NCBI GenBank assembly: GCA_964601085.1 | Contig: CAZRLN010000001.1 | Span: 19,166 to 83,165 of the forward strand | Direction: 5' to 3' | DNA length: 64,000 nt | DNA from: an uncultured Veillonellaceae bacterium | Lineage (GTDB): Bacteria; Bacillota; Negativicutes; UBA1444 | Part shown: positions 40,504 to 64,000 of the stretch, in pieces | Layout: each line of letters begins with the position of its first letter | Numbering within the stretch: position 1 is the first letter of the stretch | Notes under the pieces: generated by a model | What the model was told of the DNA's origin: nothing | Seen by the model: only the letters and a program-made list of their open reading frames with translations | Databases searched by the model: none | Made by a program: the position numbers and the translations under genes

Positions 40504-40861
40504 GTGTTTGTTAAACCGGAGCGATAATGAAGTTAGAAATAAAATGGGATACAATCAAGCCACAAGTTGGTCAAGAGCTTAAACAACGAACGATTTGACA
40601 TCTTTTCCCCAACTTGGCAGATAGGTGAAGTTATTGTTTGGACCGGGAATATATGGAAAAATGCGGTGTTTGATATGCGAATATTGACCTGTGGGCAAAA
40701 CTGTCGAAAGACAGTGACGCAATGCTATGGATCTGTAGACGTAAACCGTCCAGGATTGCCAGGCTGCCGGCGCAAAGCGCCGATAGTCGGCAATCCTTTT
40801 GTTTTTTTCGAGAACCAATTCGGTATTGTTCAAAATCATTATCCCAGTGGAGGAGAAAATG

Positions 40862-41152
40862 ATGTCGAAAAAAGGTAATCGTTACAACGCGGATTTTAAG
40901 AAGAAAGTCATTGCCCACAGTCGTCAGCCTGGCAATACTATTGCCGGAACCGCCAAGCAGTTTGACATCAGCGATCAGACTCTGCGCAACTGGCTTAACC
41001 AACGCGAGGATCAGAAACATCTGGACCGACTGCGATTGATGCAATTGGAAAAGGAATTGGCGGAAGCAAAACGACGATTGGCGGACATGGAATTGACCAA
41101 TGAAATTTTGATCAAGGCCACCGCAATTTTTGCCGCTAATAAGCAAGCCTGA
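40862..41152 (+). mobile_element. IS3-family transposase OrfA (HTH + leucine-zipper) lacking an OrfB partner; IS remnant
   Basis: MSKKGNRYNADFKKKVIAHSRQ...QTLRNWLNQ HTH_Tnp_1 domain followed by a coiled-coil, ending ...IFAANKQA*. RBS GGAGGAG. No OrfB-like ORF or frameshift partner follows; a polysaccharide export gene starts 54 nt later. Confidence 0.65.
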
Positions 41153-41205
41153 TGTTATTGTCTGAATCAACCGAACACTTAGTGGACAGAATGGAGGGGA
41201 AGCCG

Positions 41206-41940
41206 ATGAAGAAGTGGTTTTTGCTACTGCTGATTTTGTTGATTATGCCGCACGCCGGCAGTTTGGCAGCCGAACTAAATATCCCTTATATTTTGCACCC
41301 TGGCGATGTGCTGTCGATTAATGTCGCCGGCTATCCCGAATTGAGCTTCCCGCAAACAGAAGGCCGTCAGGGCATTACAATCGGCCTGGATGGGAAAATA
41401 GCCTATCCGTTTTTAGGCGAGGTTTCCACGCAGGGATTGACTGCGGACCAATTGGCAACCTCCTTGGCGGAACGGCTCAAAGGAGTGTATGTAAACGCCG
41501 CTGTCAGCGTAAATATCATGCGGTATGGCAAAGAAAGGATTTATGTTTTGGGGGAAGTGAATCGACCCGGGTCCTACGAACTGGACAAAGTTCGGACCCT
41601 ATTGGACGCGATAGGCGCAGCCAGCGGCTGGCAAACCGATGCGGCGAAAACCAAGGTTTTTATTATTCGCCGTGATCAGAACGGCAAACCACCGATCAAG
41701 GTTAATTTGATGAGTTTGTTGGAAAATGGCGATACCAGCAAAAATCATCGGCTTCGCGAAGGCGATGTCGTATTTTTGGTTGGCTCAAACAAATTGAATT
41801 TGGCGACGGACCTTCTTCCCTTAGTTAATGCGGCGTATCAATTGGCGAAATTCAATCATCTGAATCCCAATAATAACCAAGCGTCGCAGACTTCTCAGAA
41901 CCCCAATAATCCTAATAATCCTGATCCTGGGTGTCACTGA
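41206..41940 (+). CDS. Wza-like polysaccharide export protein (OPX; Poly_export + SLBB domain), paralog 1
   Basis: Signal peptide MKKWFLLLLILLIMPHAGSLAAE, PGD(V/M)LSI Poly_export motif, and an SLBB domain. The C-terminus is low-complexity NPNNPNNPDPGCH. Confidence 0.8.
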   Translation: MKKWFLLLLILLIMPHAGSLAAELNIPYILHPGDVLSINVAGYPELSFPQTEGRQGITIGLDGKIAYPFLGEVSTQGLTADQLATSLAERLKGVYVNAAVSVNIMRYGKERIYVLGEVNRPGSYELDKVRTLLDAIGAASGWQTDAAKTKVFIIRRDQNGKPPIKVNLMSLLENGDTSKNHRLREGDVVFLVGSNKLNLATDLLPLVNAAYQLAKFNHLNPNNNQASQTSQNPNNPNNPDPGCH

Positions 41941-42023
41941 TCTGTATTCCGTCTGGCGTTGGAAATCCAAAGTTTTGCGGGTCTCGATAATCAGGGATTG
42001 TGAATATTTAAGGGGGTGTACTA

Positions 42024-42725
42024 ATGAGAAAATGGTTGTTTCTGGTGATGATTCTGGTGATCCTGCCGCATACAGGCGTGCTGGCGGCTGAAACGAATCC
42101 GGCGCCCACGCCGGACGTTAACAATTCTAATGGCGCCTATATCCTTCATCCGGGCGACATGCTGTCGATCAATGTGTTTGGGTATCCGGAATTGAGTTTT
42201 CCCAATCAGGGCCATATGGAAGGACTGACGATTCGCCCGGACGGAAAACTGACCTATCCCTTTCTGGGGGAAATCGCGGCAAAAGGAATGACGGTAAAAG
42301 ATTTCGCCAAGCTTCTTTCGGAACAGTTGGGCGAGATCTACGTGAACCCGGTTCTCAGCGTGAACATTATGCGTTTTGGTACGGATCGGATCTATGTCTT
42401 GGGCGAAGTCAACCAACCGGGAGCGTATGAGCTGGATAAGAGCCGAAATCTTCTGGACGCGATTGGCGCGGCGCGCGGCTGGACCAAAGATGCGGCGAAA
42501 ACCAAGGTTTTCATTATCCGTAAAGATCAAAACGGCAAGCCGCCACTAAAGATCAATCTCATGTCTTTGCTCAAGGAAGGCGATACCAGCAAAAACTATC
42601 CCCTTCAACAGGGCGACGTTGTATATCTGACGGAAAATCATCGGATTGATTTTGCCAGAGATATTGTGCCGCTCATCAATGCCGCCTACATGATTACCTG
42701 GATTTCCGACAACAACAAACGGTGA
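42024..42725 (+). CDS. Wza-like polysaccharide export protein (OPX), paralog 2
   Basis: About 65% identical to paralog 1 over the core, with signal peptide MRKWLFLVMILVILPHTGVLAAE. Confidence 0.8.
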   Translation: MRKWLFLVMILVILPHTGVLAAETNPAPTPDVNNSNGAYILHPGDMLSINVFGYPELSFPNQGHMEGLTIRPDGKLTYPFLGEIAAKGMTVKDFAKLLSEQLGEIYVNPVLSVNIMRFGTDRIYVLGEVNQPGAYELDKSRNLLDAIGAARGWTKDAAKTKVFIIRKDQNGKPPLKINLMSLLKEGDTSKNYPLQQGDVVYLTENHRIDFARDIVPLINAAYMITWISDNNKR

Positions 42726-42770
42726 CCAGTGCGGGAGAGTGAAAAAATTCAACATTGGGGAGGCACAATT

Positions 42771-44144
42771 ATGTTCGAGGAAAAATTGGAGATGCGTACC
42801 ATTGCCACAATTATCGGTCGACGGCGCAAAATCATTGGCGGCGTTTTGGGGGCAATGATCATTGCTGCGCTGATCTTCAGCTTTTTGCAACCAACCCAGT
42901 ATGAAGGAACGGTAAGCCTTCGGGTCCAATACCCGCTGGGGCTGAACGACAGGCTTTCGGCGCTGCCGTCAGACCAAATGATCACGCAGCAGATCATGAC
43001 CTATGCCGAAATTGCCAAAAGTCGGGCCGTTGTTCAACCGATCATTGAATATCTGTACGCCGATGCCGAGGAAAAGCCGCTCTATGAAGATATGGCCAAA
43101 CGGATCGATGCCAAACCGGTACGCGGGACCGACATGCTGGTATTGAGTATCTTGGCCGGAACACCGGCGGAAGCGCAAAAAGCGGCGGATTATCTATTGA
43201 TGACTTTCAATGCGAAACTTACGGACATTGTCAGACTCCAGGGGAAAGAGTCGCGGGTATTTATTGGCGGCCGACTGGAAGAAGCCAAGCTGGAATTGGA
43301 TAAAACGGAACAAGCGTTGGTCGACTTCAAGTCGAAAAACCAGACGGTGTCCATTAGCGACCAAACAAGAACCTTTGTGGAACGCCAGGCAAATTTGCGA
43401 AGACTGGCGGTGGACAATCAGTTGGCGTTGGAGAAGGCTTGGGCTCAAGTGAGATCGCCGGCGTTAATTTCCGATACGCCCACGATCACAAATCTGAAAA
43501 GTCGTCTTGCCGACCAGGAAGCCGAGCTTGCCGCATTGTTGAAAAACCATACGGATAAGCATCCCAAGGTGAAAACCTTGCAAGCGGCCATGGGCGAAAA
43601 CAAGGCGAAACTGAATGAAGAAATGAAACGTGTGGCCCAAGGCGAACTGGCATTGGGACAAACTCAGCGGGCCACGATCGCCAGACTTAGCAGCCAGGAA
43701 GAACAGGAGATGGCAGCGCTGCCGGCCAAAGAACAGGGTCTCGCCCGGCTGATGCTCAATTATACGGTGGCGCAGGAACTCTATGTCATGCTGGCCAAGC
43801 GGTATGAAGATGCCCGGATCAGTGAAGTGATGCAACCGACCAATGTTCAGGTCGTCGATGTCGCCGCAATGCCGGAAAAAACTGCTCGACCTCGCTGGTT
43901 GCTGAATTTGGCGATCGCCGGCCTGATTGGTCTGTTTTCCGGTGTTACCGCCGCGTTTTTCGTCGATTATTTCCGCAAGACGATCGATACGGCGGAGGAT
44001 GTCAAGAATTATCTTGGACTCCGGGTGATCGGCAGTATTCCCAGCTATGGCATGCAAAAGGAACCGGAAAAAGCTTGGAGCAACTTTACGCACAGGGTAC
44101 CGCAAGTGATCAAATCCGCTGAAGCGAAAAGTCAGGAGGGATGA
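42771..44144 (+). CDS. polysaccharide co-polymerase (Wzz/GumC-like chain-length determinant, PCP)
   Basis: N- and C-terminal TM helices flank a long coiled-coil periplasmic domain. There is no fused kinase domain. Confidence 0.8.
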   Translation: MFEEKLEMRTIATIIGRRRKIIGGVLGAMIIAALIFSFLQPTQYEGTVSLRVQYPLGLNDRLSALPSDQMITQQIMTYAEIAKSRAVVQPIIEYLYADAEEKPLYEDMAKRIDAKPVRGTDMLVLSILAGTPAEAQKAADYLLMTFNAKLTDIVRLQGKESRVFIGGRLEEAKLELDKTEQALVDFKSKNQTVSISDQTRTFVERQANLRRLAVDNQLALEKAWAQVRSPALISDTPTITNLKSRLADQEAELAALLKNHTDKHPKVKTLQAAMGENKAKLNEEMKRVAQGELALGQTQRATIARLSSQEEQEMAALPAKEQGLARLMLNYTVAQELYVMLAKRYEDARISEVMQPTNVQVVDVAAMPEKTARPRWLLNLAIAGLIGLFSGVTAAFFVDYFRKTIDTAEDVKNYLGLRVIGSIPSYGMQKEPEKAWSNFTHRVPQVIKSAEAKSQEG

Positions 44145-44146
44145 TC

Positions 44147-44821
44147 GTGGGAAAACAAACTCGATATATCATCCGGGATCGGGAACAGTCGGCGGTTGCC
44201 GAATCTTTCCGGGTGCTGAGTTCGACACTGCAGGAGACGCAGGCGGAAACCGGCGCTAAAACTATCTTGTTTTCGACCGTTACGACCGGTGAAGGCGATT
44301 CGATGGCAGCTGTCAACACTGCTGCATCCTTGGCATATGCCGGCAAAAAAGTAATTTTGGTGGATTGTGATATGCGACGCCCGGTATTGCACGAAATCTT
44401 CCACGTCGATGTTTTTGGCTTGACCAACGTTATCATCCAGGACAGGGAAGTGGCGGAAATGCTGCAAGACACGGATATCGCCGGACTTAAAGTCTTGTCC
44501 AGCGGATCGGTTCCGGTGGGGCCCGTGGAATTGCTTTCCAATCCCAAACTGCGGGAGGTTCTGGAAACATTGAAGACGATGGCCGATTATGTATGTATTG
44601 TTTGTGCCCCGCTGATCATCCGTTCTTCCAACATACTCTCCGATGCCTGCATTGTGGCGTCCAAAGTCGATGGGGTAATTTTGGTCATCGACAGCCGGTC
44701 CGTGAAAACGCAGACTGCGAAGAAAGCGGTGGAGTTGTTGAACGGCGCCAGGGCAAAGGTGATCGGGACGGTGCTGAACGATGTGAAAGCGGCAGACGAG
44801 TTCATGTATTTTGCCTCTTAG
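44147..44821 (+). CDS. BY-kinase (CpsD/CapB-type) homolog with degenerate catalytic motifs (predicted pseudokinase)
   Basis: AESFRVLSSTLQ N-terminal motif and overall CpsD-like architecture. The Walker A position reads TTGEGDSM instead of GEGKST. The Walker B-equivalent reads DYVCIVCAP instead of DYVIIDTPP. There is no C-terminal Tyr cluster (ends ...EFMYFAS). GTG start is inferred from AGGAGG spacing; the alternative ATG is at 44141. Confidence 0.75.
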   Translation: MGKQTRYIIRDREQSAVAESFRVLSSTLQETQAETGAKTILFSTVTTGEGDSMAAVNTAASLAYAGKKVILVDCDMRRPVLHEIFHVDVFGLTNVIIQDREVAEMLQDTDIAGLKVLSSGSVPVGPVELLSNPKLREVLETLKTMADYVCIVCAPLIIRSSNILSDACIVASKVDGVILVIDSRSVKTQTAKKAVELLNGARAKVIGTVLNDVKAADEFMYFAS

Positions 44822-44839
44822 AGGATACCTGGCGACCAG

Positions 44840-46753
44840 ATGAGAAAAGGCAGGCGAATTCAGGTGCGACAAAAAATAAACCGCTTATGCCTGATGGTTG
44901 CTGATGCAGCGGTTTTTGCCGTCAGCCCCTTCATAGCATTATATCTGCGAGTAGACGACATAGCCGGAAGCGTATATTTGGATAAAATCATCCATTATCT
45001 GCCGGTGCTTCTGGCGGTCCACTTTCTTGCCTTTTTTGCCCTCCAACTGTACCGTCGGGTATGGAAATACGCCGGTATCCATGAATTGCTGTCGATTGTC
45101 GGGGCGGCGACGCTGGCGCAATTGTCGTTGTACCTTCTGGCCCAGGCGGGCGGGATTGGTTTGCCGCGAAGCCTCTATATTCTCTGCGGGTTGTTGGAAG
45201 TTGCAATGATTGGCGGAATTCGGCTGTCGGTAAGAATTGCATCGAACAAATGCCTCGAATTTCTTGGCCGCCCCGAAAAAATTCTGATATTTGGCGCCGG
45301 TGATGTGGGATCTTGGATTGTAAAGGAAATCCGTGCCCATTATGGCGCCAACAAGAAAATTGTTGGATTCATCGATGATGACCCGAAGAAATTGGGTTGC
45401 ATACTGAATGGCGTAAAAGTGCTGGGCGGGCGTTATGAAATTGAAAAAATTGTCACGCAGCATGGAATCGATGAAATCATTGTCGCCATCCCATCCGCCC
45501 GCAGCATGCTAGTTCGGGAAATTGTTAAAATGTGCCGTAGTACGAAAAGTAAAGTCAAAATTGTCCCCGCACTTCATGAGGTCATTGACGGATTGGTTAC
45601 AATTCGCCAGTTGCGGGATGTCAATCTGGAAGATTTGTTGCACCGGGAACCGATCAAACTGGACATTGCCCTGATGCGAACGCAATTTCGGCAAAAACGA
45701 GTGCTGATCACCGGCGCCGGTGGCTCCATCGGATCGGAGATTTCCCGCCAGGTAGCCAAGATGTTACCGGCTAAGCTGTATTTGTTGGGCAAGAGTGAAA
45801 ACAATATTTTTGAAATTGAACGCGAATTGCAAAGGTTGTATCCACACCTGGAAATGGAGCCGATTATTGCGGATGTTCGTGATGAAAAGCGCATCCGCAG
45901 CATATTCGCCGAACGACGTCCGGAAATCATCTTTCACGCCGCCGCGCACAAACATGTTCCCCTGATGGAGAGCCAACCGGTAGAGGCGGTTCAGAATAAT
46001 ATTTTCGGGACGATGACTGTCGCCAGAGCCGCAATGGCCGTGGAAGCAGAATGTTTTGTCATGGTGTCCACGGACAAAGCCATTAATCCTTCCAGTGTCA
46101 TGGGGGTAACCAAGCGAGTGGCGGAGATGGTCATTTGTTCCATGAACGGGAAGAGCGCCACAAGATTCGCCGCGGTACGCTTCGGCAATGTGCTGGGCAG
46201 CAGGGGCAGCGTGGTTCAACTGTTTCGCAAACAAATCGCCCAAGGCGAGGCCATCACGATCACTCACCCCGACATGTGCCGCTACTTCATGACGATTCCG
46301 GAAGCTTCGCAACTGGTGCTCCAGGCCGGCGCCATGGCGAAGGGCGGCGAAGTGTTTGTCCTCGACATGGGGGAACCGATCAAGATTGTGGATTTGGCTT
46401 GCCACTTGATTGAGCTGACCGGTTTGGTTCCCCACAAGGACATAAAAATTGAATATACAGGCTTACGTCCCGGCGAAAAACTGTTTGAAGAGTTGTTGAC
46501 GGCGGAAGAGGGCAGCTCGGCAACAAAACATGAAAAAATATTTGTGACTAATTTGAAAAAAGTGGATGAAGAAAAGTTGTATGAAAGCCTGACGGTTTTG
46601 AGAAATATCGAGGATTCGGATAAAATCGTCAACCTTCTGGCAAAATTGGTTCCCACGTACCAAGGTTCCAGGGTACGGCGGCTGCGCCTGATCGAAGGCA
46701 AAGAAGCGCTGACGACGGTTGATGGGAAAATGGTTCCCGAGGAGGCGCTTTGA
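44840..46753 (+). CDS. membrane-anchored UDP-N-acetylglucosamine 4,6-dehydratase (CapD/PglF/WbpM family)
   Basis: 637 aa. Four N-terminal TM helices, then tandem Rossmann domains with GAGGSIGSE, and an SDR catalytic region. Confidence 0.85.
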   Translation: MRKGRRIQVRQKINRLCLMVADAAVFAVSPFIALYLRVDDIAGSVYLDKIIHYLPVLLAVHFLAFFALQLYRRVWKYAGIHELLSIVGAATLAQLSLYLLAQAGGIGLPRSLYILCGLLEVAMIGGIRLSVRIASNKCLEFLGRPEKILIFGAGDVGSWIVKEIRAHYGANKKIVGFIDDDPKKLGCILNGVKVLGGRYEIEKIVTQHGIDEIIVAIPSARSMLVREIVKMCRSTKSKVKIVPALHEVIDGLVTIRQLRDVNLEDLLHREPIKLDIALMRTQFRQKRVLITGAGGSIGSEISRQVAKMLPAKLYLLGKSENNIFEIERELQRLYPHLEMEPIIADVRDEKRIRSIFAERRPEIIFHAAAHKHVPLMESQPVEAVQNNIFGTMTVARAAMAVEAECFVMVSTDKAINPSSVMGVTKRVAEMVICSMNGKSATRFAAVRFGNVLGSRGSVVQLFRKQIAQGEAITITHPDMCRYFMTIPEASQLVLQAGAMAKGGEVFVLDMGEPIKIVDLACHLIELTGLVPHKDIKIEYTGLRPGEKLFEELLTAEEGSSATKHEKIFVTNLKKVDEEKLYESLTVLRNIEDSDKIVNLLAKLVPTYQGSRVRRLRLIEGKEALTTVDGKMVPEEAL

Positions 46754-48063
46754 ACAACGACAGGAGTGTTGCGGACATCAGGGGTCGGCTTATTTCCGGC
46801 ATCAAATGGACGGCGGTAGTAGCGGTTGTGGTGTCGGCAAGTCATTTGGCTTCTTCGGTAATCGCGGCAAGACTGTTGGGGTTGGAGGAGTTTGGCAAGT
46901 TTTCGATTATTCGGAGTACGGCGATTATGATGGCCAACATTGCGGCAATGGGAATCGGTGTAGCCGCGACAAAATATGTGGCCGAACTTCGCAACACGAC
47001 TCCGGAACGACTGGGTAGAATCTTGGGACTGTGCTCCTCCATCACCATCGTGACCAGCGGATTGTTCGCACTGGCGCTGTTGCTGCTGGCGGAGGAGATT
47101 GCCACCACCAGCTTCAATTCGGGACAATTGGCCGGACAGTTGCGGATTTCCTCCATCTATATCTTCTTTGTCACACTGAATGAATATCAGAATGGTGTGT
47201 TGGCGGGGTTTGAATCCTTCGCGAAGCTGGCCCGAATCAATGCCATCCAGGCGGTGGGCAGCCTGTTGCTGATATCCGTGCTCGCCTTTTTGTGGGGGTT
47301 GACGGGCGCCGCGTGGGCGCTGGGCCTGTCCGGAGTGCTGAACTGGTACCTGAATCGGTTGGAAATTCGAAAACAACTGGCGAAATATCAGATCGCCGCG
47401 ACATATCAGGGGATTTTTCAGGAGAAGGCCGTGCTGACAAATTTCGCGCTGCCGGTGGCTTTTTCCGGAATGATCGGGGCGGTGACAGTATGGGGTTGCA
47501 ATGCTTTTTTGGTCCGACAGCCGGAAGGAATGGCGCAAATGGCCATATTTACGGCAGCAGGGTCTTTCCGGTCGCTCGTTATGTTTGTACCTGGAATGGT
47601 GATCCGCGTTGCAACTCCCATTTTGTGCAACCTGGTCGGCGAAAAAAATTATTTGGCATCATCGCGAGTTTTTAAGATCAATGTCCTGATTTCGGCTCTT
47701 GCCTCCTCCTGTGTTGCAGGCGTAATTATTTGGATGGCTCCGGAACTGTTGGCGCTGTTTGGGAAAAAATTCGTCATCGGCTCAGAAGTTGCAATAGTAG
47801 TTGCGCTAGTGTCAGTCATTGAAGTAATGGCCAGTACGTTGTATCAGCCTTTACTGGCTCATGGAAGAATCTGGTGGCAAGTCCAAGTGATCGTTTGCTG
47901 GAGCATCACTTTATTATTCGTAACCTTCTTGACTGCCGGCGATTATGGCGCTCTTGGATTGGCTGGTTCATATATGGCGGCGCATTTGGTTTCACTGAGC
48001 CTGTATGTATTCATGGGGCATCAGATCCGAAAAATAGCAAAACCGGATTTGGTTAGGATTTGA
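46750..48063 (+). CDS. oligosaccharide flippase Wzx (MOP superfamily polysaccharide biosynthesis protein)
   Basis: 437 aa, about 12 TM segments, typical PST family. TTG start overlapping the upstream stop. Confidence 0.75.
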   Translation: MNNDRSVADIRGRLISGIKWTAVVAVVVSASHLASSVIAARLLGLEEFGKFSIIRSTAIMMANIAAMGIGVAATKYVAELRNTTPERLGRILGLCSSITIVTSGLFALALLLLAEEIATTSFNSGQLAGQLRISSIYIFFVTLNEYQNGVLAGFESFAKLARINAIQAVGSLLLISVLAFLWGLTGAAWALGLSGVLNWYLNRLEIRKQLAKYQIAATYQGIFQEKAVLTNFALPVAFSGMIGAVTVWGCNAFLVRQPEGMAQMAIFTAAGSFRSLVMFVPGMVIRVATPILCNLVGEKNYLASSRVFKINVLISALASSCVAGVIIWMAPELLALFGKKFVIGSEVAIVVALVSVIEVMASTLYQPLLAHGRIWWQVQVIVCWSITLLFVTFLTAGDYGALGLAGSYMAAHLVSLSLYVFMGHQIRKIAKPDLVRI

Positions 48064-49091: not shown

Positions 49092-49092
49092 C

Positions 49093-52995: not shown

Positions 52996-53029
52996 TCGGA
53001 TGCCTGAAGGAAAACCGGAGGTGTTATTT

Positions 53030-56600: not shown

Positions 56601-57203
56601 GTGAAACGGATGTTTGACCTGGTCGCTTCCGCGACACTGTTGATCTTTCTGTTACCCGTACTGGCCGTTATTGCCGTTTTGGTTCGGTGGCGGCTCGGTT
56701 CTCCTGTAATTTTCAGAGCGATTCGTCCCGGTCTGCATGGCAAGCCGTTTTGCATGTATAAGTTTCGGACCATGACGAATGCCCGTGATAAAGCAGGGCG
56801 TCTATTGCCGGATAAGGAAAGAATCAATCGATTGGGCGAGCTGTTGAGACGGTCGAGTTTGGATGAATTGCCTCAATTGGTAAATGTGATCAAAGGAGAA
56901 ATGAGTCTGGTTGGCCCCCGGCCACTGGCGATGGAATATCTGCCGCTTTACAATATGGAACAAGCTCGGCGGCATCACGTCAAACCCGGGATTACCGGCT
57001 GGGCCCAGGTCAATGGGCGAGCCACGATTTCCTGGACCGAAAAGTTCAAATTGGATGTTTGGTATGTAGATAATCATTCCTTTTCGATCGATATGTTGAT
57101 CTTGTTTCTGACGGTGAAGAATGTAGTTTTTCAACACGGCGTGTGCAACACTGGCGAAACAAAGTATGGCAATTTTTTGGGATCAAATTATAAGGATGGA
57201 TGA
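56601..57203 (+). CDS. undecaprenyl-phosphate sugar-phosphotransferase, small PglC/WbaP-C-terminal type (priming enzyme)
   Basis: Single N-terminal TM helix plus the Bac_transf domain with DELPQL and SLVGPRP motifs. 200 aa, typical of PglC-like enzymes that transfer N-acyl-amino-dideoxyhexose-1-P. Confidence 0.85.
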   Translation: MKRMFDLVASATLLIFLLPVLAVIAVLVRWRLGSPVIFRAIRPGLHGKPFCMYKFRTMTNARDKAGRLLPDKERINRLGELLRRSSLDELPQLVNVIKGEMSLVGPRPLAMEYLPLYNMEQARRHHVKPGITGWAQVNGRATISWTEKFKLDVWYVDNHSFSIDMLILFLTVKNVVFQHGVCNTGETKYGNFLGSNYKDG

Positions 57204-57206
57204 GAA

Positions 57207-57779
57207 ATGTTTATCACGGCAGGGGATATTCGGTTGCGTCGGCCTGAACCCAAGGATGTGGACGAATTATATAGCTATCGTAATGACCCCGGAATTGTTG
57301 GCGCGTTATGCGGGTTTTCTAAAGGATACTCCCGGGCGGATATGTTGGATTGGGTCGAACGGCAACGCAAAAATCAGCAGGACCTTGTTTGGGTGATTGC
57401 TGATGCGGAAGACCGTTGCATTGGTCACTGCGGGTTATACAACATCGATTTCAGTGTTGGTACGGCTGAAGTCGCAATATGTATCGGCAAGGCTGATTTT
57501 CGAAAGGGGCAAAGCCGGGCCATTATGGAGGCGCTAAAAGAATATGGCTTTGGCTATCTGAATCTGCGGAAGATTCGGGGTGAAGTGCTTGGTACGAACA
57601 AATTGGCGATCAATTTCAACAAAAAATGCGGCATGAAAGAAGAAGGCATATTGCGCGAAGAGGAATATAGAGACGGACAGTATGTTGACGTGCATGTTTT
57701 TGGGTTGTACCGAAGGGACTGGAAGCCGATCTTGCCGGGAACTGACGAAAGTGGCCGAGTTTGTGAAACGAGGGGATGA
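57207..57779 (+). CDS. GNAT N-acetyltransferase (RimL/PseH-like), paralog 1
   Basis: Acetyltransf_3-type GNAT: LRRPEPKDVDELYSYRNDP...IGHCGL... Confidence 0.8.
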   Translation: MFITAGDIRLRRPEPKDVDELYSYRNDPGIVGALCGFSKGYSRADMLDWVERQRKNQQDLVWVIADAEDRCIGHCGLYNIDFSVGTAEVAICIGKADFRKGQSRAIMEALKEYGFGYLNLRKIRGEVLGTNKLAINFNKKCGMKEEGILREEEYRDGQYVDVHVFGLYRRDWKPILPGTDESGRVCETRG

Positions 57780-58333
57780 TCTTTTTGCTGATTGACAACG
57801 TCGTCCAGCTGCGGCGGCCTGAACCGGAAGATATTGAAGCGATGTATGACTACCGCAATGATCCTCGGATTGTCGCAACAATGGGGATGACTTCCCGCGG
57901 ATTTGCCCGTGCCGACGTTGCCGAATGGATTGACTCCCATCGAAAGAATAGGGATGATCTCGTTTGGACGATTGCCGATTTGAATGATCGGTGTATTGGC
58001 CACTGTGGACTATACAAGATTAATCCCCGAAACGGAGTTGCGGTGATCGGTATTTGCATTGGCGATGTTGGCCTTTGGGGCAAGGGGATCGGGACAACCG
58101 TAATTGATGGCGTGGTTACGTATGCCTTTCAACAAATGAATCTCCGGAAAATCAAGGCGGAAGTGCTCGCGACAAACATTTCAGCACGGAAGTTGTTCGA
58201 TAAACTCGGTTTCAAGACTGAGGCGATTTTGCGGGAATACAAATATCGAAACGGACAATATCTGGATTTTCATGTTTTGAGTGTATTTAGAAATGAGTGG
58301 GCACAACGGTGCGAACAATGGCAGCCAGAATAA
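57776..58333 (+). CDS. GNAT N-acetyltransferase (RimL/PseH-like), paralog 2
   Basis: About 55% identical to paralog 1 (LRRPEPEDIEAMYDYRNDP...IGHCGLYKIN). 4-nt overlap with the paralog 1 stop. Confidence 0.8.
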   Translation: MIFLLIDNVVQLRRPEPEDIEAMYDYRNDPRIVATMGMTSRGFARADVAEWIDSHRKNRDDLVWTIADLNDRCIGHCGLYKINPRNGVAVIGICIGDVGLWGKGIGTTVIDGVVTYAFQQMNLRKIKAEVLATNISARKLFDKLGFKTEAILREYKYRNGQYLDFHVLSVFRNEWAQRCEQWQPE

Positions 58334-59403
58334 AACCCTGGGAAGCTGGCAGCGAATTTCACTGGATGCCGCTGGCGCATGGTTCACGCAAACCCTATTA
58401 TTTAACGGCGGCAAATCTCTATTCATGCGGCCGGTCGGCATTGGCGGGAATCCTTCAATACGGCAGGGAAGTTTTGGGTTGGAAACGTTTGTGGATTCCT
58501 TCCTATTACTGTCCGGAAGTTGTTGAGACGATATTCGCCACAGGAATTTCAGCAGAATTTTACTTTGACTCTCCAATGGATCAGGTTGTCGTTCCAAGGG
58601 ATATTCTTCCTGGCGATGCAATCCTAATTGTCAATTTTTTTGGCGTGAAAAGTCGGGAAGAGTATGAGGAAATTTTTCGATTGGAGATTCCGGTAATCGA
58701 AGATCATAGTCATGATCCCTGGAGTCTTTGGGTAATGCAAAGCCAGGCCAGTTATCTGACTGCTTCGCTAAGGAAAACATTGCCAATTCCGGATGGCGGC
58801 GCGACTTGGTCGAATATCGGGTCGCATCTCCCGCCTCAACCAGCGCAGAAAGGTCAATCGAGCAACGTACCCGTTGAAAAAATTGAAGCAATGCTACTTA
58901 AAACCTTATATTTAGCCGGAAAGATTTCGGATAAGGAACGGTATCTCGAACTATTCAATTCCGCTAAACATAATCTTTGCCTTTCAACGGTTGATCAGCA
59001 GTGTGGCGAAGAACCGATCAGCGAACTTTCCAAAGGGATTTTGACCTCGTTTCCCTGGCGAGGTTGGCGCGCAAAACGGTTAGCGAATTACCGGCGTTTG
59101 CGACAACAGGTTCTGGAAAAATCGGGGATGAAAATATTGGAATCCAATGACCGGGATGTATGTCCTTTTATGATGACGGTGTTGTTTTCTACCCGAAAAA
59201 AACGGGATCAGATGAAAAAGAGATTAATTAAAAATTCCATTTATCCTGCCATAATTTGGCCGATTGAAGAAAGTCATGCTTGGGCAAGCGAACGGGCAAA
59301 AATATTGTCAGGGCAAATACTGTCCATTCACTGCGACGGCAGATACTCTCTGACCGATATGGACAAAATCGCTGCGATATTCAACCAAGGCATCGTTCCA
59401 TAA
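58318..59403 (+). CDS. divergent DegT/DnrJ/EryC1/StrS-like PLP-fold enzyme
   Basis: Fold-type I AAT pattern is recognisable: YSCGRSALAGIL...EVV...IPVIEDHSHDP...ASLRKTLPIPDGGA parallels the DegT nSGTaAL...DEVI...vIEDaAqAhG...fSFhptKnltxGEGG motifs. Many consensus residues are replaced. Start uncertain (GTG 58297 or ATG 58318), overlapping GNAT-2. Confidence 0.5.
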   Translation: MAARIKPWEAGSEFHWMPLAHGSRKPYYLTAANLYSCGRSALAGILQYGREVLGWKRLWIPSYYCPEVVETIFATGISAEFYFDSPMDQVVVPRDILPGDAILIVNFFGVKSREEYEEIFRLEIPVIEDHSHDPWSLWVMQSQASYLTASLRKTLPIPDGGATWSNIGSHLPPQPAQKGQSSNVPVEKIEAMLLKTLYLAGKISDKERYLELFNSAKHNLCLSTVDQQCGEEPISELSKGILTSFPWRGWRAKRLANYRRLRQQVLEKSGMKILESNDRDVCPFMMTVLFSTRKKRDQMKKRLIKNSIYPAIIWPIEESHAWASERAKILSGQILSIHCDGRYSLTDMDKIAAIFNQGIVP

Positions 59404-59427
59404 ATTGAACCAACAAGGATGGGAATT

Positions 59428-60498
59428 ATGGAATTTTTTAAAATGCTGGACGCTTCCAACAGGGAGGAATATGAAACTTGGCTGCAGGTTTGGTCAGAGT
59501 GGCCGGCGCGCGAAGTGTTCGCGCACCCGGAATATGTCAATCTGTTTGCCAGAAAATGTGATCGTTCGGTATGCGCCGTTCAGAAAAAAAGCGATGGATT
59601 GATCATCATGCCGATGATTATGCGACCAATTTCGGCGGAAATTTGGGCGGACGAGGAAAACCAGTCGTATGATATGGTTGCGCCTTATGGCTATGGTGGA
59701 CCGTATGTGTCAGGGCAATATAACTTGCAAGAATTTTGGCGCCACTTCCTGCGATGGGCGACTGAGAGAGGAATTATCGCCGCGTTTTTTCGCTTTTCTC
59801 CGTTTGCGGCCGATATTTCCGGATTAATTGATTCAGTGGATGTTACCGGCGGAAATGTGATCCGGTCTCTGACCGAAGGAAAGGATGGAATCTGGAACGA
59901 TTACAAGCATGCGGTTCGAACTTGTGTCCGATCGGCAGAAATGAACGAGGTTACAGTGGAATTTGATGAAACGGAAGAGCGATTGCCAAGTTTTATTCGC
60001 CTATATTACCAAACAATGCAACGATGCCATGCGGATCGGCAATATTTTTTCCCAGTGGAATTTTTTCATCGAATCGTTGCGAATTTGCGGGGACAGTATT
60101 TCTTTGCCTTTGCAATGTTTCAGGGGAAAGAGATTGCCGGGAAATTGGTTTTGTATTCGCAAGAACATCTGTATCCGTTTCTCGGCGGAGCTGATGAACG
60201 ATTTTTCAACTTAAATCCGAATCAACTTTTGGACACCAGGATTTTTTACTGGGGAGTTGAAAACGGGAAAAAAAGTTGTGTTCTGGGTGGCGGTTATGAC
60301 GGATACGATGGTGTTTTTCAGTATAAAAAAAAATTTGCTCCAACTGGTGTTGTCCCTTTTTCAGTAGGGAAACACATTCTTGATCCCACTGAATACAGAA
60401 AAATGTATGCAAAACGGCAAGAATATGAAATGAAACAGGGGCGGAATTGGAACAATGAAGGGATCTTCTTTCCCGAGTACCGGTCAAAAAGCGATTGA
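59428..60498 (+). CDS. FemAB-family / BioF2-like (Acetyltransf_6) transferase, paralog 1
   Basis: Family pattern LYYQTMQRCH...FF, NPNQLLDTRIFYWGVENGKK...LGGGYDGYDGVFQYKKKFAP (cf. FemAB/TIGR03019 PEP-CTERM-associated FemAB-related proteins). Alternative start at 59419. Confidence 0.7.
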   Translation: MEFFKMLDASNREEYETWLQVWSEWPAREVFAHPEYVNLFARKCDRSVCAVQKKSDGLIIMPMIMRPISAEIWADEENQSYDMVAPYGYGGPYVSGQYNLQEFWRHFLRWATERGIIAAFFRFSPFAADISGLIDSVDVTGGNVIRSLTEGKDGIWNDYKHAVRTCVRSAEMNEVTVEFDETEERLPSFIRLYYQTMQRCHADRQYFFPVEFFHRIVANLRGQYFFAFAMFQGKEIAGKLVLYSQEHLYPFLGGADERFFNLNPNQLLDTRIFYWGVENGKKSCVLGGGYDGYDGVFQYKKKFAPTGVVPFSVGKHILDPTEYRKMYAKRQEYEMKQGRNWNNEGIFFPEYRSKSD

Positions 60499-60535
60499 TA
60501 CAGGAATGTGGACCGTCGATGGAGGCTGTGCAAAT

Positions 60536-61600
60536 ATGTTTAAGATTTTGGATGCCGCCGATCATAATGATTATTCAAAATGGCTTCGGATATGGGAGAG
60601 TTGGCCATTACGAGAAGTCTTCGCGCATCCGGAGTATGTTAAGCTGTTCGCGCGAGGATGTGATCGCGCCGTGTGCGCGGTTCAGGAGAATGCCGACGGA
60701 ATGATTCTTCTGCCGTTGATTTTGCGTCCATTAGCAGCGGAACCTTGGGCGGGAAAAGATACTCCATATTTTGATGCAGTTGCGCCCTATGGCTTTGGCG
60801 GTCCATTTATCAACGGGCGATACGACATGGAGGAGTTTGGACGTCATTTCAAGGCTTGGGCGCAAAACGTCGGAATTGTGTCCGCGTTTTTCCGGTTGTC
60901 GCCATTTGCCGCAGATATTAGGAATATGGTCGATACCGTGGATGTGAGCGGCGGCAACGTGATCCGATCGCTATCGGAGGGGTATGACGAGATTTGGCGG
61001 GATTATAAACAACTGGTCCGCACTCATGTCAAAAAAGCAACCCAAAGCGGGGTAACCGCGGAGTTCGATGAAACCGGCGATAGCTTGCCGGCCTTTATCC
61101 GCTTGTATTACCGGACGATGCAACGATGCCATGCAGCGCAGCAATACTATTTTTCTGCAGATTTTTTCCGAAAAATCACAACGCGTCTGAAGGGGCAGTA
61201 CTTCCTTGCCAAGGCCAAGTATAAAGAGGAAGTGATCGCAGCGTACATTGTGCTGGTATCGCAGGAAAGCATTTATTATTATCTTGCCGGATCGAATGAA
61301 AATTTCTTTCACCTCAGACCCAATCAGTTTTTAACCAATGCCGTATTCCAATGGGGGATCGACCACGGAAAGAAATGGTGTATTCTAGGGGGCGGATATG
61401 AGGGGTATGATGGTGTGTTTCAATATAAAAAAGCGTTTGCACCCGCAGGAGTAGTTCCCTTTTTGGTTGGCAAACACATTTATTATCCGTCGGAGTATCA
61501 AGATTTCTGTGAAAAGCGAAAAGCGCATGATCTTCAAAATGGATTGAGCTGGATTACCAATGATTCCTTTTTCCCAGCCTATCGAACTAAGAATGATTGA
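60536..61600 (+). CDS. FemAB-family / BioF2-like (Acetyltransf_6) transferase, paralog 2
   Basis: About 60% identical to paralog 1 (FAHPEYVKLFARGCDRAVCAVQ..., RPNQFL...GGGYEGYDGVFQYKKAFAP). Confidence 0.7.
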   Translation: MFKILDAADHNDYSKWLRIWESWPLREVFAHPEYVKLFARGCDRAVCAVQENADGMILLPLILRPLAAEPWAGKDTPYFDAVAPYGFGGPFINGRYDMEEFGRHFKAWAQNVGIVSAFFRLSPFAADIRNMVDTVDVSGGNVIRSLSEGYDEIWRDYKQLVRTHVKKATQSGVTAEFDETGDSLPAFIRLYYRTMQRCHAAQQYYFSADFFRKITTRLKGQYFLAKAKYKEEVIAAYIVLVSQESIYYYLAGSNENFFHLRPNQFLTNAVFQWGIDHGKKWCILGGGYEGYDGVFQYKKAFAPAGVVPFLVGKHIYYPSEYQDFCEKRKAHDLQNGLSWITNDSFFPAYRTKND

Positions 61601-61653
61601 AGCATGACGACTGAGATACAGGTGACGAAGAATTAAAAAAGGAGTGAGCCTTC

Positions 61654-62901
61654 ATGGCAATTCCGCAAAAACGTATCTGTCTTTCGCCGCCCCATATGAG
61701 CGGTTTCGAGCAGGAATATGTGTCGGATGCTTTTGCGTCAAACTGGATTGCTCCGTTGGGTCCCCACGTGGATGCCTTTGAAGCCGGAATTGCCAAGTAT
61801 GTCGGGTGCAAGGCGGCAGCAGCCCTGTGTTCAGGAACTGCGGCCATTCATCTGGCATTGAAATGCGCCGGTGTTCAAAAAGGCGACTGGGTATTTTGTT
61901 CCTCATTGACCTTCGCGGCGTCCGCCAATCCGATTCTGTATGAAGGAGCCCGGCCGGTCTTCATTGATTCGGAACCCGAGTCATGGAACATGTCGCCCAT
62001 CGCCTTGCGCAAGGCGATGGCGGATGCAAAAAGAGAGTGCAGACTTCCCAAAGCGGTGATTATTGTCAATTTGTATGGGCAAAGCGCCGATATGGATAAG
62101 TTGTTGCCAATCTGTGAAAGATATTGCGTTCCCGTTATTGAAGATGCGGCGGAATCCCTTGGCGCGACCTATCGGGGCAAAGCCAGCGGCACTTTTGGCA
62201 AATACGGCATGTTCTCTTTCAATGGCAATAAAATCATCACGACCTCGGGCGGCGGCATGCTCATATCGGACGATGTCGAGGCGATACAGAAAGCCCGGTT
62301 CTGGGCAACCCAGGCGCGTGACCCGGCCCGGCATTACCAGCACAGCGAGATTGGCTACAACTATCGCTTGAGTAATATCGCGGCGGCGATTGGCCGGGGA
62401 CAGTTGTGCGTATTGCCAGATCGCATAAAAAAAAGGCGCAAAATATTTGCGCGGTATTTTTCAGAACTGGAACGATATGATGGGCTTGAATTTATGCCTG
62501 AAGCCCCGTATGGACAGTGTAATCGCTGGTTGACAACGATGACGATCGATCCGGCCCGATCAAAAGTAACCGTCAACGAGGTGATGGATGCTTTGGCGGA
62601 AGAAGATATCGAATCCCGGCCTGTCTGGAAACCGTTGCACCTCCAACCGATTTTCGCCACATATCCTTACTATGCGCATGGCACGACGGAGAGTGTGTCG
62701 GACCGATTGTTTGAGCAGGGGATCTGTTTGCCGTCTGGCAGCAACATGACCGAAGAAGAGCAAGCGAGGGTGATCAAGGTGATTCAGGACTGCCTTGGGC
62801 ATCGCGAGGCAAGTTCCGTCGGATTTTTCTACGGCTCAAAGGGCGGAAACAGCCATTGGCTCAATAATGAGGCCGTTTTAGGCAATACATCGACAAATTG
62901 A
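61654..62901 (+). CDS. DegT/DnrJ/EryC1/StrS-family sugar aminotransferase (PglE/WecE/Per-like)
   Basis: Canonical motifs CSGTAAIHLALK, IVNLYGQSADMD, IEDAAESLGATYRGK and FSFNGNKIITTSGGGML (PLP Lys). RBS AAAGGAGTG. Confidence 0.9.
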   Translation: MAIPQKRICLSPPHMSGFEQEYVSDAFASNWIAPLGPHVDAFEAGIAKYVGCKAAAALCSGTAAIHLALKCAGVQKGDWVFCSSLTFAASANPILYEGARPVFIDSEPESWNMSPIALRKAMADAKRECRLPKAVIIVNLYGQSADMDKLLPICERYCVPVIEDAAESLGATYRGKASGTFGKYGMFSFNGNKIITTSGGGMLISDDVEAIQKARFWATQARDPARHYQHSEIGYNYRLSNIAAAIGRGQLCVLPDRIKKRRKIFARYFSELERYDGLEFMPEAPYGQCNRWLTTMTIDPARSKVTVNEVMDALAEEDIESRPVWKPLHLQPIFATYPYYAHGTTESVSDRLFEQGICLPSGSNMTEEEQARVIKVIQDCLGHREASSVGFFYGSKGGNSHWLNNEAVLGNTSTN

Positions 62902-63233
62902 CAACCATAACAAGATTCTTCTTTCCACATTACAGTTGCGGAAAAAAACAATTTTCCCAGGGAAGTTTCCAGCTCCAATCCTATTTGTTGCTGCAATTCC
63001 AGGAATGAATCGGTCTGAATTGTCAATCCTTCCGGAGAAATTTGCGAAGCTAGAACCTGGTTGCGAATATCAGGCTGATTTTTGGTGAACAAAATAGCAG
63101 GCAGGGATTTTTTCACTCTCGACCGACCTTCTTTTTTCCTTAATAAATGCGATATGCTTGCTCAAGCATAATACATTTTATTTATCATACCATATTGGGA
63201 ATCAAGTTTGAAGAAAATGGAGGATTGATTCAT

Positions 63234-64000
63234 ATGCCGGACCGATCCCGGCCGTTAAGAATTTTGCATATCGTGGGACGCATGAACCGGGGCGGCGTGG
63301 AAACTTGGCTGATGAATCTGCTGCGAACGGTAAGTCGGGATTCCTGGCAAATGGATTTTTTAGTCGGCGATCCCACACCGGCTGACTATGATGAAGAGAT
63401 TCGGCAACGTGGCGCCCGAATATTCCCGTGTTCGCTCCAGAATCCTTTTCTGTACATTTTTCGCTTGATCGGCATTTTGCGGAAGTTTGGTCCTTATGAT
63501 GCGATTCACAGCCATGTGCATCATTTTAGCGGAATAACCCTGCTGATCGCCTATTGGGCGGGAATTCCCGTACGAATTGCCCATAGCCATAGTGACACGG
63601 CGGGCTTGGACTCCAAAGCGGATTGGCGGCGCAGGCTCTATCTGACATTAATGAAAAAATTGATTGACCGCTATGCGACGGTGGGCATGGCAGTGAGCCG
63701 GGAAGCTGCAACGGCTCTTTCCAACGGGAATGCATCCCGCCTGACATGGCAAGTCCGACATTGCGGAATCAATCTTGCGGATTATAGCCATCCCGTTGAT
63801 CGGGAAGCGTTGCGGCAAGAATGGGGAATTCCCCGAACTTCGTTTGTGATCGGGCATGTGGGGAGCTTTACTTTGGTAAAAAACCATAGATTCATTTTGC
63901 AGGTGGCGCAGGAAGTGTTCCGACGGAAACCGGACAGTAGATTGGTGCTTGTCGGGGATGGACGCTTGCGTATCGATATCGAGAATCAGGCAATGAGGCT
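63234..64000 (+). CDS. glycosyltransferase family 4 (N-terminal part; 3' end outside window)
   Basis: LRILHIVGRMNRGGVETWLMNLLR GT4 N-terminal domain. No stop before the window end. RBS GGAGGA 10 nt upstream. Confidence 0.8.
   Translation, partial: MPDRSRPLRILHIVGRMNRGGVETWLMNLLRTVSRDSWQMDFLVGDPTPADYDEEIRQRGARIFPCSLQNPFLYIFRLIGILRKFGPYDAIHSHVHHFSGITLLIAYWAGIPVRIAHSHSDTAGLDSKADWRRRLYLTLMKKLIDRYATVGMAVSREAATALSNGNASRLTWQVRHCGINLADYSHPVDREALRQEWGIPRTSFVIGHVGSFTLVKNHRFILQVAQEVFRRKPDSRLVLVGDGRLRIDIENQAMR

Follow-up and report, generated by a model that had tools for sequence, protein, structure and literature searches.

A riboswitch-headed surface polysaccharide locus with a DegT-fold and FemX-like gene module in an uncultured Negativicutes bacterium

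Which polymer is made by a surface polysaccharide locus whose assembly and export genes are accompanied by a kinase homologue that has lost its motifs, by two relatives of aminoacyl-tRNA-dependent transferases and by a protein that no family model recognizes? The question is raised by a stretch of 64,000 nucleotides, referred to here as the window, from an uncultured Veillonellaceae bacterium (assembly GCA_964601085.1, contig CAZRLN010000001.1, positions 19,166 to 83,165 of the forward strand). From 40.7 kb to its end, the window holds 23 intact, co-directional genes. [quoted passage not shown] A preliminary description of the same DNA, made from the letters alone, had already proposed a Wzx/Wzy-dependent surface polysaccharide locus with PCP/OPX export. 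This proposal is supported gene by gene: each of the gene families that it named was recovered with Pfam or NCBIfam models or from a predicted fold. Among polysaccharide loci, this is an ordinary one. The leads that it offers are a predicted cyclic di-GMP (c-di-GMP) ON switch and a widespread module of DegT-fold, FemX-like and phosphoglycosyl transferase (PGT) genes.

The locus had been recognized as a region of more than 23 kb, beginning at 40859, with a lower GC content. The composition agrees: 0.498 for 40859-64000 vs. 0.554 for 1-40400, a difference of 5.6 points, and no 2-kb window of the locus exceeds 0.532 (upstream mean 0.554, standard deviation 0.029). In the list of open reading frames (ORFs) and their translations, plus-strand ORFs follow each other without break from 40799/40862 to 64000, and the translated genes contain no internal stops. 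All genes had been placed on the plus strand with short gaps. The short gaps stand for the most part: neighbouring genes are separated by -44 to +83 nt, apart from apparent overlaps that arise where an ORF start is set too far upstream and from one gap of 332 nt. This gap precedes the last GT4 glycosyltransferase gene. A PilZ-like ORF of 95 aa sits there on the minus strand, and the strand claim fails for it. Together with a riboswitch and an HTH_Tnp_1 gene, it is one of three features that the preliminary description did not contain. The 3' end of the locus had correctly been placed past the window: the metagenome contigs L007-L012, which match the window at 99.8-99.9% identity in overlaps of 6.8-12.3 kb, carry the locus further. 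It runs for ~7 kb past the window and reaches a total of ~30 kb, so the window part would represent the first ~23 kb of one operon-like locus.

Export and assembly genes

The genes predicted to export, assemble and tailor the polymer are the following:

41152-41940, plus strand: OPX protein 1, assigned to Class 3 (Poly_export and one SLBB; signal peptide of the SPI type, no lipobox Cys; real start possibly at 41206)
42024-42725, plus strand: OPX protein 2, assigned to Class 3 (paralogue of OPX1, 61.7% amino acid identity; 90.6% identical in the sister-species locus L095)
42771-44144, plus strand: PCP-2 co-polymerase without a kinase domain (Wzz 28.2 bits, GNVR 52.2 bits, both above cut-off)
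44141-44821, plus strand: stand-alone homologue of bacterial tyrosine (BY) kinases, predicted pseudokinase (TIGR01007 150 bits; CapB homology E 9e-25; overlaps the PCP stop by 4 nt)
46750-48063, plus strand: Wzx (MOP) flippase (Polysacc_synt 39.7 bits vs. cut-off 28.2; weak TuaB and WzxE matches)
48087-49091, plus strand: GT2 glycosyltransferase (Glycos_transf_2 119.8 bits)
49102-50361, plus strand: Wzy-like polymerase with several transmembrane segments, assigned from context (Wzy_C 28.8 bits, under the cut-off of 31.7)
50373-51584, plus strand: GT4 glycosyltransferase (Glyco_trans_1_4 79.7 bits)
51670-52995, plus strand: right-handed beta-helix protein, pectate-lyase-3-like, membrane-anchored (PF12708 51.1 bits, Beta_helix 22.5 bits, N-terminal transmembrane segment)
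55373-56581, plus strand: GT4 glycosyltransferase (Glyco_trans_1_4 114.7 bits)
63234-64000, plus strand: GT4 glycosyltransferase, cut at the window end (NCBIfam stp2-like; full length 379-408 aa in L007-L012)

The tandem of OPX genes is real: each of the two carries Poly_export (68.5 and 77.6 bits) and SLBB. The proteins are 233-262 aa long with one SLBB, the Wza_C helix has no match, and no Cys follows the signal peptide. By this domain content, the pair is Class 3 and not Wza-type (Class 1), a type marked by a C-terminal Wza_C outer-membrane helix, at least two SLBB domains and a lipoprotein signal. Class-3 OPX proteins, as defined in PMC9603273, are without an outer-membrane pore, require a separate beta-barrel and occur in some Gram-positives too (PMC9603273, PMC12819527). 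The earlier argument that Wza-type OPX genes imply an outer membrane is lost with this class assignment, as the class also exists in Gram-positives (PMC9603273). The outer membrane is instead deduced from the taxon, because the nearest relatives are Veillonellaceae/Negativicutes metagenome-assembled genomes (MAGs).

The PCP-2 protein has a long periplasmic coiled coil and EpsF- and pepcterm_ChnLen-like NCBIfam matches. The kinase homologue encoded next to it aligns with Staphylococcus aureus CapB along its entire length and retains the Walker A' DxD. Its Walker A, in contrast, reads GEGDS (Lys to Asp), its Walker B IVCAPL (Asp to Cys), and the tail has one Tyr. The preliminary description had suspected a pseudo-kinase, and the comparison with CapB agrees: Walker A has lost its Lys, Walker B its Asp and the tail its Tyr cluster, and the losses are kept across the clade. 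They are identical in ~40 Negativicutes homologues at 45% identity or more; more distant relatives have all motifs. The dN/dS ratio (nonsynonymous to synonymous divergence) of this gene against the sister species is 0.07. Judged by its motifs, the protein is a conserved pseudokinase of the EcpK/HfsB kind.

EcpK and HfsB are recently defined BY pseudokinases that act as scaffolds for kinase-less PCP-2 proteins (PMC12004946). The pairs EcpK-EpsV of Myxococcus xanthus and HfsB-HfsA of Caulobacter share with the window pair a stand-alone BY-kinase homologue devoid of catalytic residues and Tyr tail, a PCP-2 without kinase domain and the absence of a phosphatase gene; none was found in the window locus. 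Unlike EcpK, the window pseudokinase keeps the full BY-kinase length, the Walker A' DxD and a clear similarity to CapB, and it adjoins its PCP. The nearest relative, P0214, has all motifs, which argues that the loss in the window pseudokinase was independent and took place within the Negativicutes.

During assembly, the repeat unit would be finished by one GT2 and three GT4 enzymes, flipped by Wzx and polymerized by the Wzy-like protein. The dead pseudokinase would keep PCP-2 in a working state by scaffolding, not by phosphorylation, and PCP-2 would pass the polymer to the two Class-3 OPX proteins, dependent on a separate outer-membrane barrel. The membrane-anchored beta-helix protein is a probable glycanase or epimerase, which would trim or epimerize the polymer. 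If so, the locus provides a diderm-Firmicute example of a phosphorylation-independent PCP/pseudokinase pair combined with Class-3 OPX proteins and no obvious porin, and bears on the way in which Negativicutes polymers cross the outer membrane.

Past the window, the extension on contigs L007-L012 carries, in this order, the rest of the GT4 gene, a PglD-like hexapeptide acetyltransferase, an acyl carrier protein, an AMP-dependent ligase and a formyltransferase-like protein. Next come a second carrier protein, a KAS-III-like enzyme, a ShlB/POTRA_2 Omp85-type barrel and at least two beta-helix paralogues. Two groups of features can be distinguished in this part:

L007 12762-17364 (~64.4-69.0 kb on the window scale): acyl-activation cassette (PglD-like enzyme, two carrier proteins, AMP-dependent ligase, formyltransferase-like protein, KAS-III-like enzyme)
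L007 17404-21248 and L013 16118-17725: ShlB/FhaC-type (two-partner-secretion-like) Omp85 barrel and beta-helix genes

The acyl-activation cassette suggests an unusual N-acyl group on an amino sugar; it is missing from the related locus L013. The downstream beta-helix paralogues are secreted, pectate-lyase-like proteins, 47% identical to the beta-helix protein inside the locus. ShlB/TpsB-type barrels normally export proteins. No TPS-domain motifs (NPN) were found in the beta-helix proteins beside the ShlB-type barrel. The latter is either the exporter of the beta-helix enzymes or an unorthodox outer-membrane partner of the Class-3 OPX proteins.

Amino-sugar genes and the FemX-like pair

The precursor genes lie partly between the assembly genes and partly in one run that begins with the priming enzyme:

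44894-46753, plus strand: PglF/EpsC/WbpM-type membrane-bound UDP-GlcNAc 4,6-dehydratase (Polysacc_synt_2 394 bits, CoA_binding_3; PseB and FnlA homology)
53000-54313, plus strand: TviB/WbpO-like UDP-GlcNAc 6-dehydrogenase (NF011729 471.8 bits, below the equivalog cut-off of 592; TIGR03026, for the NDP-sugar dehydrogenase subfamily, 378.5 bits, above 189.8)
54370-55353, plus strand: TviC/WbpP-like UDP-GlcNAcA 4-epimerase (NF011728 455.5 bits, below the cut-off of 760; Epimerase 182 bits)
56601-57203, plus strand: small monotopic PglC/EpsL-type PGT, the priming enzyme, 200 aa (Bac_transf 212.5 bits vs. cut-off 27)
57207-57779, plus strand: GNAT N-acetyltransferase 1, RimJ/L-PseH type (Acetyltransf_3 68.2 bits; PseH 59.7 bits, below the cut-off of 93.1)
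57776-58333, plus strand: GNAT N-acetyltransferase 2, 47% identical to the first (Acetyltransf_3 88.8 bits, PseH 79 bits)
58318-59403, plus strand: member of an unannotated DegT-fold (sugar-aminotransferase-like) family, by AlphaFold2 model and Foldseek
59428-60498, plus strand: FemX-like transferase 1, Fem1 (Acetyltransf_6 56.9 bits, FemAB 30.9 bits; 57% identical to Fem2)
60506-61600, plus strand: FemX-like transferase 2, Fem2, predicted to be aminoacyl-tRNA dependent (AlphaFold2 model with a predicted local distance difference test, pLDDT, of 92.5)
61654-62901, plus strand: canonical DegT (PglE/EpsN/LegC-like) C4 aminotransferase (DegT_DnrJ_EryC1 324.8 bits; TIGR04181 LegC 372.7 bits, below the cut-off of 420)

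The set of functions for a primer pathway is complete: a 4,6-dehydratase, a C4 aminotransferase (labelled 'EpsN' by JGI), an N-acetyltransferase, which is the PglD-like enzyme past the window on L007, and a small PGT. A diacetamido-trideoxyhexose-like sugar had been deduced earlier from the PglF, DegT, GNAT and PglC genes. All of these families are present, and the canonical PglD-type acetyltransferase joins them past the window; from its gene families, the PglF/DegT/PglD/PGT set is predicted to make a 2,4-diamino-2,4,6-trideoxyhexose primer. For the second sugar, the best NCBIfam matches are TviB and TviC, though sub-equivalog, in agreement with the N-acetyl-hexosaminuronic acid that had been expected. 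The pair is predicted to make UDP-GalNAcA.

All four functions of the Campylobacter Pgl system (PglF/E/D/C) and of Bacillus subtilis EpsC/N/M/L, in which UDP-diNAcBac is made and transferred to undecaprenyl phosphate, are found in the window locus and its extension. In comparison with these systems, the locus adds two GNATs, the divergent DegT-fold protein and two FemX-like enzymes between PGT and DegT; moreover, with equivalog scores below cut-off, the stereochemistry and the N-acyl groups may differ. The combination of an uronic acid with a 4-amino-trideoxyhexose presumably resembles the sugar sets of the Shigella sonnei/Plesiomonas O17 O-antigen, of Salmonella Vi and of Pseudomonas aeruginosa O6 (TviB/TviC corresponding to WbpO/WbpP). 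To our knowledge, those are O-antigen or ABC-type systems without PCP-2, pseudokinase, Class-3 OPX or Fem-like genes.

The tandem GNAT genes noted before are paralogues by their common Acetyltransf_3 domain and 47% identity. They are followed by the gene that had been called a divergent DegT-like gene. Its product (58318-59403) has no Pfam or NCBIfam match at E<=0.01 and no PDB sequence match at E<=10, and an hhalign comparison with the DegT of the locus gave P = 0.0028 only. An AlphaFold2 model built from 33 homologues (pLDDT 88.8) was compared with the PDB by Foldseek, and the 50 listed matches are, all 50, DegT-family sugar aminotransferases (E 4.5e-13 to 7.6e-11, template modelling (TM) score 0.53-0.68, 12-17% identity). 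The predicted fold is that of the fold-type-I sugar aminotransferases, and the Lys and Asp are retained: in the alignment with the DegT of the locus, the invariant K153 falls on the Schiff-base Lys and the invariant D129 on the Asp for binding of the pyridoxal phosphate (PLP) cofactor. The earlier name is, therefore, appropriate. The family counts 1,614 clusters of 50% identity at E<=1e-30 and 8,663 at E<=1e-3, with all members labelled hypothetical. On the strength of the model, the product belongs to a large new DegT-fold family for which neither Pfam nor NCBIfam has a model. It may act in the nucleotide-amino-sugar branch that feeds the PGT; most simply, it would supply the amine for acylation by the FemX-like enzymes.

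The next two genes had been described as tandem FemAB-like genes. Both pass the Pfam FemAB cut-off of 24 (30.9 and 42.8 bits), and their products are 57% identical. A PDB sequence search with Fem2 alone found nothing, and a match was obtained with the family profile alone, which finds FemX at E 1.8e-13. In this alignment, the invariant K308 stands opposite the Lys of the FemX 'FK' motif, a residue that we take to have a role in the catalytic region. By Foldseek, the best folds for Fem2 are Weissella viridescens FemX (TM 0.70-0.76, root-mean-square deviation 3.7 Å), followed by Sba18/Sbb17, which are aminoacyl-tRNA-dependent peptide synthases, FemA and MprF. The 28 best structural matches are, without exception, aminoacyl-tRNA-dependent transferases and their relatives; tandem GNATs that use acetyl-CoA rank after them. 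The idea that the polymer is probably aminoacylated gains support from this FemX-type model and from the invariant Lys. As judged from the models, the FemX-like pair probably attaches amino acids to the rare amino sugar. The duplication of both Fem and GNAT genes (57% and 47% identity) in the Negativicutes lineage suggests two residues or two acceptors.

The neighbourhood of the DegT-fold gene was analyzed with phmmer/hmmsearch in 80 loci of the family from more than a dozen phyla. A PGT is encoded in 68 of the 80 loci and a DegT in 58. Counts within 3 kb were limited to the 60 loci in which both flanks reach 3 kb or more: a PGT lies this close to the DegT-fold gene in 50/60, a FemX-like gene in 49/60, a canonical DegT in 31/60 and a GNAT in 23/60. 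Fusions exist as well (PGT-DegT-fold, GNAT-DegT-fold, DegT-fold-DegT and DegT-fold-GT2). The trio of PGT, DegT-fold and FemX-like genes occurs in Negativicutes, Chloroflexota, Myxococcota, Cyanobacteria, Planctomycetota, Acidobacteriota, Actinomycetota, Bacteroidota and others. The family, with its thousands of members, is tightly linked, and sometimes fused, to PGTs and FemX-like enzymes. We put forward, as a tentative proposal, that the trio may be an uncharacterised mobile module that builds a tRNA-aminoacylated amino sugar as a lipid-linked primer, with the DegT-fold protein as a dedicated new family of PLP enzymes. If a nucleotide sugar is indeed aminoacylated from aminoacyl-tRNA, the origin of amino-acid-decorated bacillosamine-type sugars would be explained, and tRNA would have a new role outside translation and peptidoglycan synthesis. 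A literature search on FemAB proteins with bacillosamine, or on aminoacyl-tRNA in polysaccharide synthesis, returned nothing relevant.

For the Fem feature, the nearest described system by analogy appears to be the MASC/Exo cluster of M. xanthus (WzaS-WzcS-WzeS-ExoE...ExoG/H/I), a precedent for FemABX proteins in such a pathway. After its PGT, this cluster encodes two proteins of the FemABX type and a transaminase of the WecE/DegT type (PMC7310880 supplementary file 4), and the spore-coat polymer is associated with glycine (PMC12288465). Several Myxococcus papers give no description of ExoF-I. Compared by description, both systems are Wzx/Wzy-dependent and have Class-3 OPX, a kinase-like protein separate from the PCP, a PGT, two FemABX proteins and a transaminase. 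In the M. xanthus cluster, there is one OPX only, and an 18-stranded barrel adjoins it, where the window locus has two OPX; a c-di-GMP riboswitch has not been reported for the cluster, and TviB/TviC genes are missing from it. The DegT-fold gene was also considered as an orthologue of M. xanthus ExoF (MXAN_3230). This is ruled out: MXAN_3230, encoded beside the PGT, is 2-phospho-L-lactate-transferase-like (CofD-like) by fold recognition and no member of the DegT-fold family (PMC7310880 supplementary file 4). The parallel with ExoG/H/I in FemABX proteins and transaminase holds despite this rejection.

Taken together, the following pathway can be proposed. The PglF-like dehydratase and the DegT-type aminotransferase(s) would convert UDP-GlcNAc to UDP-2-acetamido-4-amino-2,4,6-trideoxyhexose, and the TviB/TviC-like enzymes would provide UDP-GalNAcA. 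Amino groups would be N-acylated by the GNATs and the PglD-like enzyme. The DegT-fold protein would supply or tailor an amino group, which the two FemX-like enzymes would acylate with amino acids from aminoacyl-tRNA; the new alpha-amine is possibly capped by a GNAT. The PglC-type transferase would then load the aminoacylated sugar on undecaprenyl phosphate as the priming sugar.

Leader and candidate regulators

The genes are preceded by a structured leader, and two small proteins are candidates for further regulation:

40684-40771, plus strand: c-di-GMP-I (GEMM-I) riboswitch aptamer (Rfam RF01051, 65.1 bits vs. gathering score 35, E 1.8e-10, full model 1-87)
40752-40808, plus strand: intrinsic terminator, 20-bp stem followed by UUUUGUUUUUUU (RNAfold -32.7 kcal/mol, z = -5.2)
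40862-41152, plus strand: HTH_Tnp_1 (IS3 OrfA-like) protein of 96 aa, first gene of the operon (Pfam PF01527 43.5 bits)
62829-63116, minus strand: small PilZ-like protein, 95 aa (Pfam PilZ 32.4 bits vs. cut-off 22.5)

The riboswitch lies just outside the start given to the locus in the preliminary description, and the 3' end of the aptamer is 91 nt upstream of the first gene. The sister-species loci retain it, L095 with 67.9 bits and L097 with 68.8 bits, and the leader aptamer is ~90% identical in the sister species, above the identity of the coding sequences. The terminator hairpin spans 40752-40797 and its 5' arm covers the last 20 nt of the aptamer; the terminator sequence is conserved in L095 and L097. 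Aptamer and terminator would be mutually exclusive folds and would act as an expression platform. This overlap suggests c-di-GMP-dependent anti-termination, i.e., an ON switch: with c-di-GMP bound to the aptamer, the terminator would be avoided and transcription would read through. The locus is, thus, probably switched on by c-di-GMP. A full-length RF01051 match in the 5' leader of an operon for an extracellular structure is what likens it to the c-di-GMP-I riboswitch operons of Firmicutes. What differs is that the riboswitch here is followed by an HTH gene and by 30 kb of polysaccharide locus, that the Firmicute is diderm, and that the ON polarity is predicted only. The predicted control of the whole locus by the riboswitch is directly testable. 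A minus-strand ORF of 86 aa called in metagenomes (40579-40839) overlaps the riboswitch and is probably spurious.

The HTH gene has no transposase partner and overlaps the start codon of OPX1. It heads the locus also in L001-L005, L094, L095 and L097. In the sister species, the protein is 90.6% identical, compared with 73.6% for the flanking pyrimidine-nucleoside phosphorylase (PYNP). A conservation exceeding that of a housekeeping neighbour points to a domesticated regulator rather than a relic of an insertion sequence (IS), and regulation of the polysaccharide operon is, on this sequence evidence, its probable function.

The PilZ-like ORF is convergent with the canonical DegT gene and overlaps its 3' end. 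The match spans profile positions 27-101 only. Orthologues are present in the Negativicutes loci L013 (E 4e-28) and L016 (E 2e-26), and the (D/N/Q)x(S/T)xxG motif reads QISPEG in the window, DISPTG in L016 and NLTMTG in L013. Besides the riboswitch, the HTH protein and the PilZ-like protein would be further candidate regulators of the locus.

Origin of the locus and alternative explanations

Upstream, the locus is flanked by a housekeeping block with genes for AspRS, AlaRS, MltG/YceG, DXS, RecN, an acetate-kinase family protein, a XerD-like recombinase and PYNP. Exact copies of window proteins are found in 41 and 98 index blocks, on many metagenome contigs that include global-sewage assemblies; for the flanking PYNP protein, the exact sequence is recorded once only. 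The closest named protein is 81% identical and labelled 'Veillonellaceae bacterium' (MAG) by NCBI, and among species-representative genomes, the nearest ones that carry the locus are MAGs labelled 'Negativicutes bacterium', at 49-51% identity. No identical described serotype locus was found, although no locus-level comparison with curated capsule/O-antigen databases was made.

A GC content 5.6 points below the flank, an IS3 OrfA-like gene at the 5' border, a XerD-like recombinase two genes upstream and the lost kinase motifs could be taken for signs of a recently acquired genomic island, possibly decaying, and horizontal acquisition had been mentioned as an option in the preliminary description. 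We consider such an origin very improbable. The sister species GCA_012798135.1 (L095) has these genes too, in unchanged order and at the corresponding chromosomal site, and the nucleotide identity with the window is 74-76%, equal in flanks and locus. Over 13 gene pairs, dN is 0.05-0.31. The dN/dS ratio is 0.04-0.21 in the 10 of 13 pairs for which dS can be estimated; dS is saturated for HTH, OPX1 and GT2. The shared site, the equal divergence and the low dN/dS indicate that the locus is resident and intact and that purifying selection acts on it. The synteny, the equal divergence and the strong conservation of the HTH gene, more conserved than its housekeeping neighbour, lead us to reject a recent horizontal acquisition and an IS remnant at the border. 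Similarly, gene decay is rejected on account of the lack of internal stops and the low ratios, and the lost kinase motifs are common to the whole clade. By these comparisons, the locus is inherited vertically; it is not a recent island, and it is not decaying. The lowest GC of the locus (0.45-0.48, with a GC content at third codon positions, GC3, of 0.445-0.49) is that of the genes at 58.3-61.6 kb. For the GNAT, DegT-fold and FemX-like genes at 57207-61600, GC3 is 0.445-0.51, as against 0.53-0.65 in most other genes of the locus. This low GC3 and the patchy spread over many phyla fit a separate, older foreign origin of the module.

An alternative function for the locus as a whole is the synthesis of a lipopolysaccharide (LPS) O-antigen, or the O-glycosylation of proteins or an S-layer in a pgl-like manner, with the Wzy_C protein as a WaaL-type ligase or a PglL-type oligosaccharyltransferase. 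Negativicutes do have LPS, Wzy_C is common to Wzy, WaaL and PglL and its match here is sub-threshold, and general glycosylation systems classically have PglF/DegT/PglD/PglC as their primer module. Yet the two OPX proteins, the GNVR PCP-2 and the BY-kinase homologue are hallmarks of capsule and EPS systems, not of Wzz/WaaL O-antigen or pgl systems, and control by c-di-GMP suits a matrix polysaccharide. This function is, hence, improbable. A more serious objection concerns the chemistry: the FemAB-like pair could be ordinary acyl-CoA N-acyltransferases and the DegT-fold protein a second conventional aminotransferase, in which case the product would be N-acetylated (diNAcBac-like) and carry no amino acid. 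In existing annotations, these proteins are called 'GNAT family N-acetyltransferase' or 'CelD/BcsL family', the Acetyltransf_6 domain is of the GNAT type, and the DegT-fold protein retains the PLP Lys and Asp of the aminotransferases. We regard this chemistry as rather unlikely, though well ahead of the O-antigen function, in view of the exclusively aminoacyl-tRNA-dependent character of the 28 best Fem2 matches (FemX, Sba18/Sbb17, FemA, MprF and relatives) and of the invariant Lys of the 'FK' motif. Moreover, three N-acetyltransferases are already at hand (two GNATs and the PglD-like enzyme), which would make two more redundant.

The reading as a capsule or EPS locus with an aminoacylated amino sugar has its own weak points. 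Regarding assembly and export, Wzy_C stays below the Pfam cut-off and no NCBIfam model matches, so that the Wzy assignment leans on a compatible position and hydrophobicity. No PgaA/Wzp-like barrel of 16-18 strands was found in the window or in the 9 kb downstream, the rest of the genome not having been searched, and the only nearby barrel, of the ShlB/POTRA_2 Omp85 type, is encoded where the locus has its 3' end and is also present in L013. Regarding the sugars, the TviB, TviC, LegC, PseH and PseB matches are all below the NCBIfam equivalog cut-offs, which makes the exact stereochemistry and configurations given for the sugars tentative. Similarity to the FemX fold is no proof of an aminoacyl-tRNA donor; a canonical DegT accompanies the DegT-fold gene within 3 kb in barely more than half of the comparable loci; and the downstream PglD-like enzyme could acetylate the C4 amine, after which no obvious acceptor would remain for the Fem enzymes unless two amino sugars are made. 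Finally, no clear RxxxR motif is present within the PilZ-like ORF, which makes its ligand binding uncertain.

Outside the polysaccharide locus, three further observations were made in the housekeeping block. An ORF of 394 aa without Pfam match (36969-38153, plus strand) is missing from the syntenic L095, where a NUDIX gene adjoins the XerD-like gene. A low-GC patch (0.46) at ~7000-9200 contains an Acyl_transf_3 (OafA-like) membrane acyltransferase gene (7182-8207, plus strand) and a nitroreductase-family gene (8304-9116, minus strand), and is possibly a small acquired insert. A 6S RNA gene was recognized at 6660-6841 on the plus strand (RF00013, 95.3 bits).

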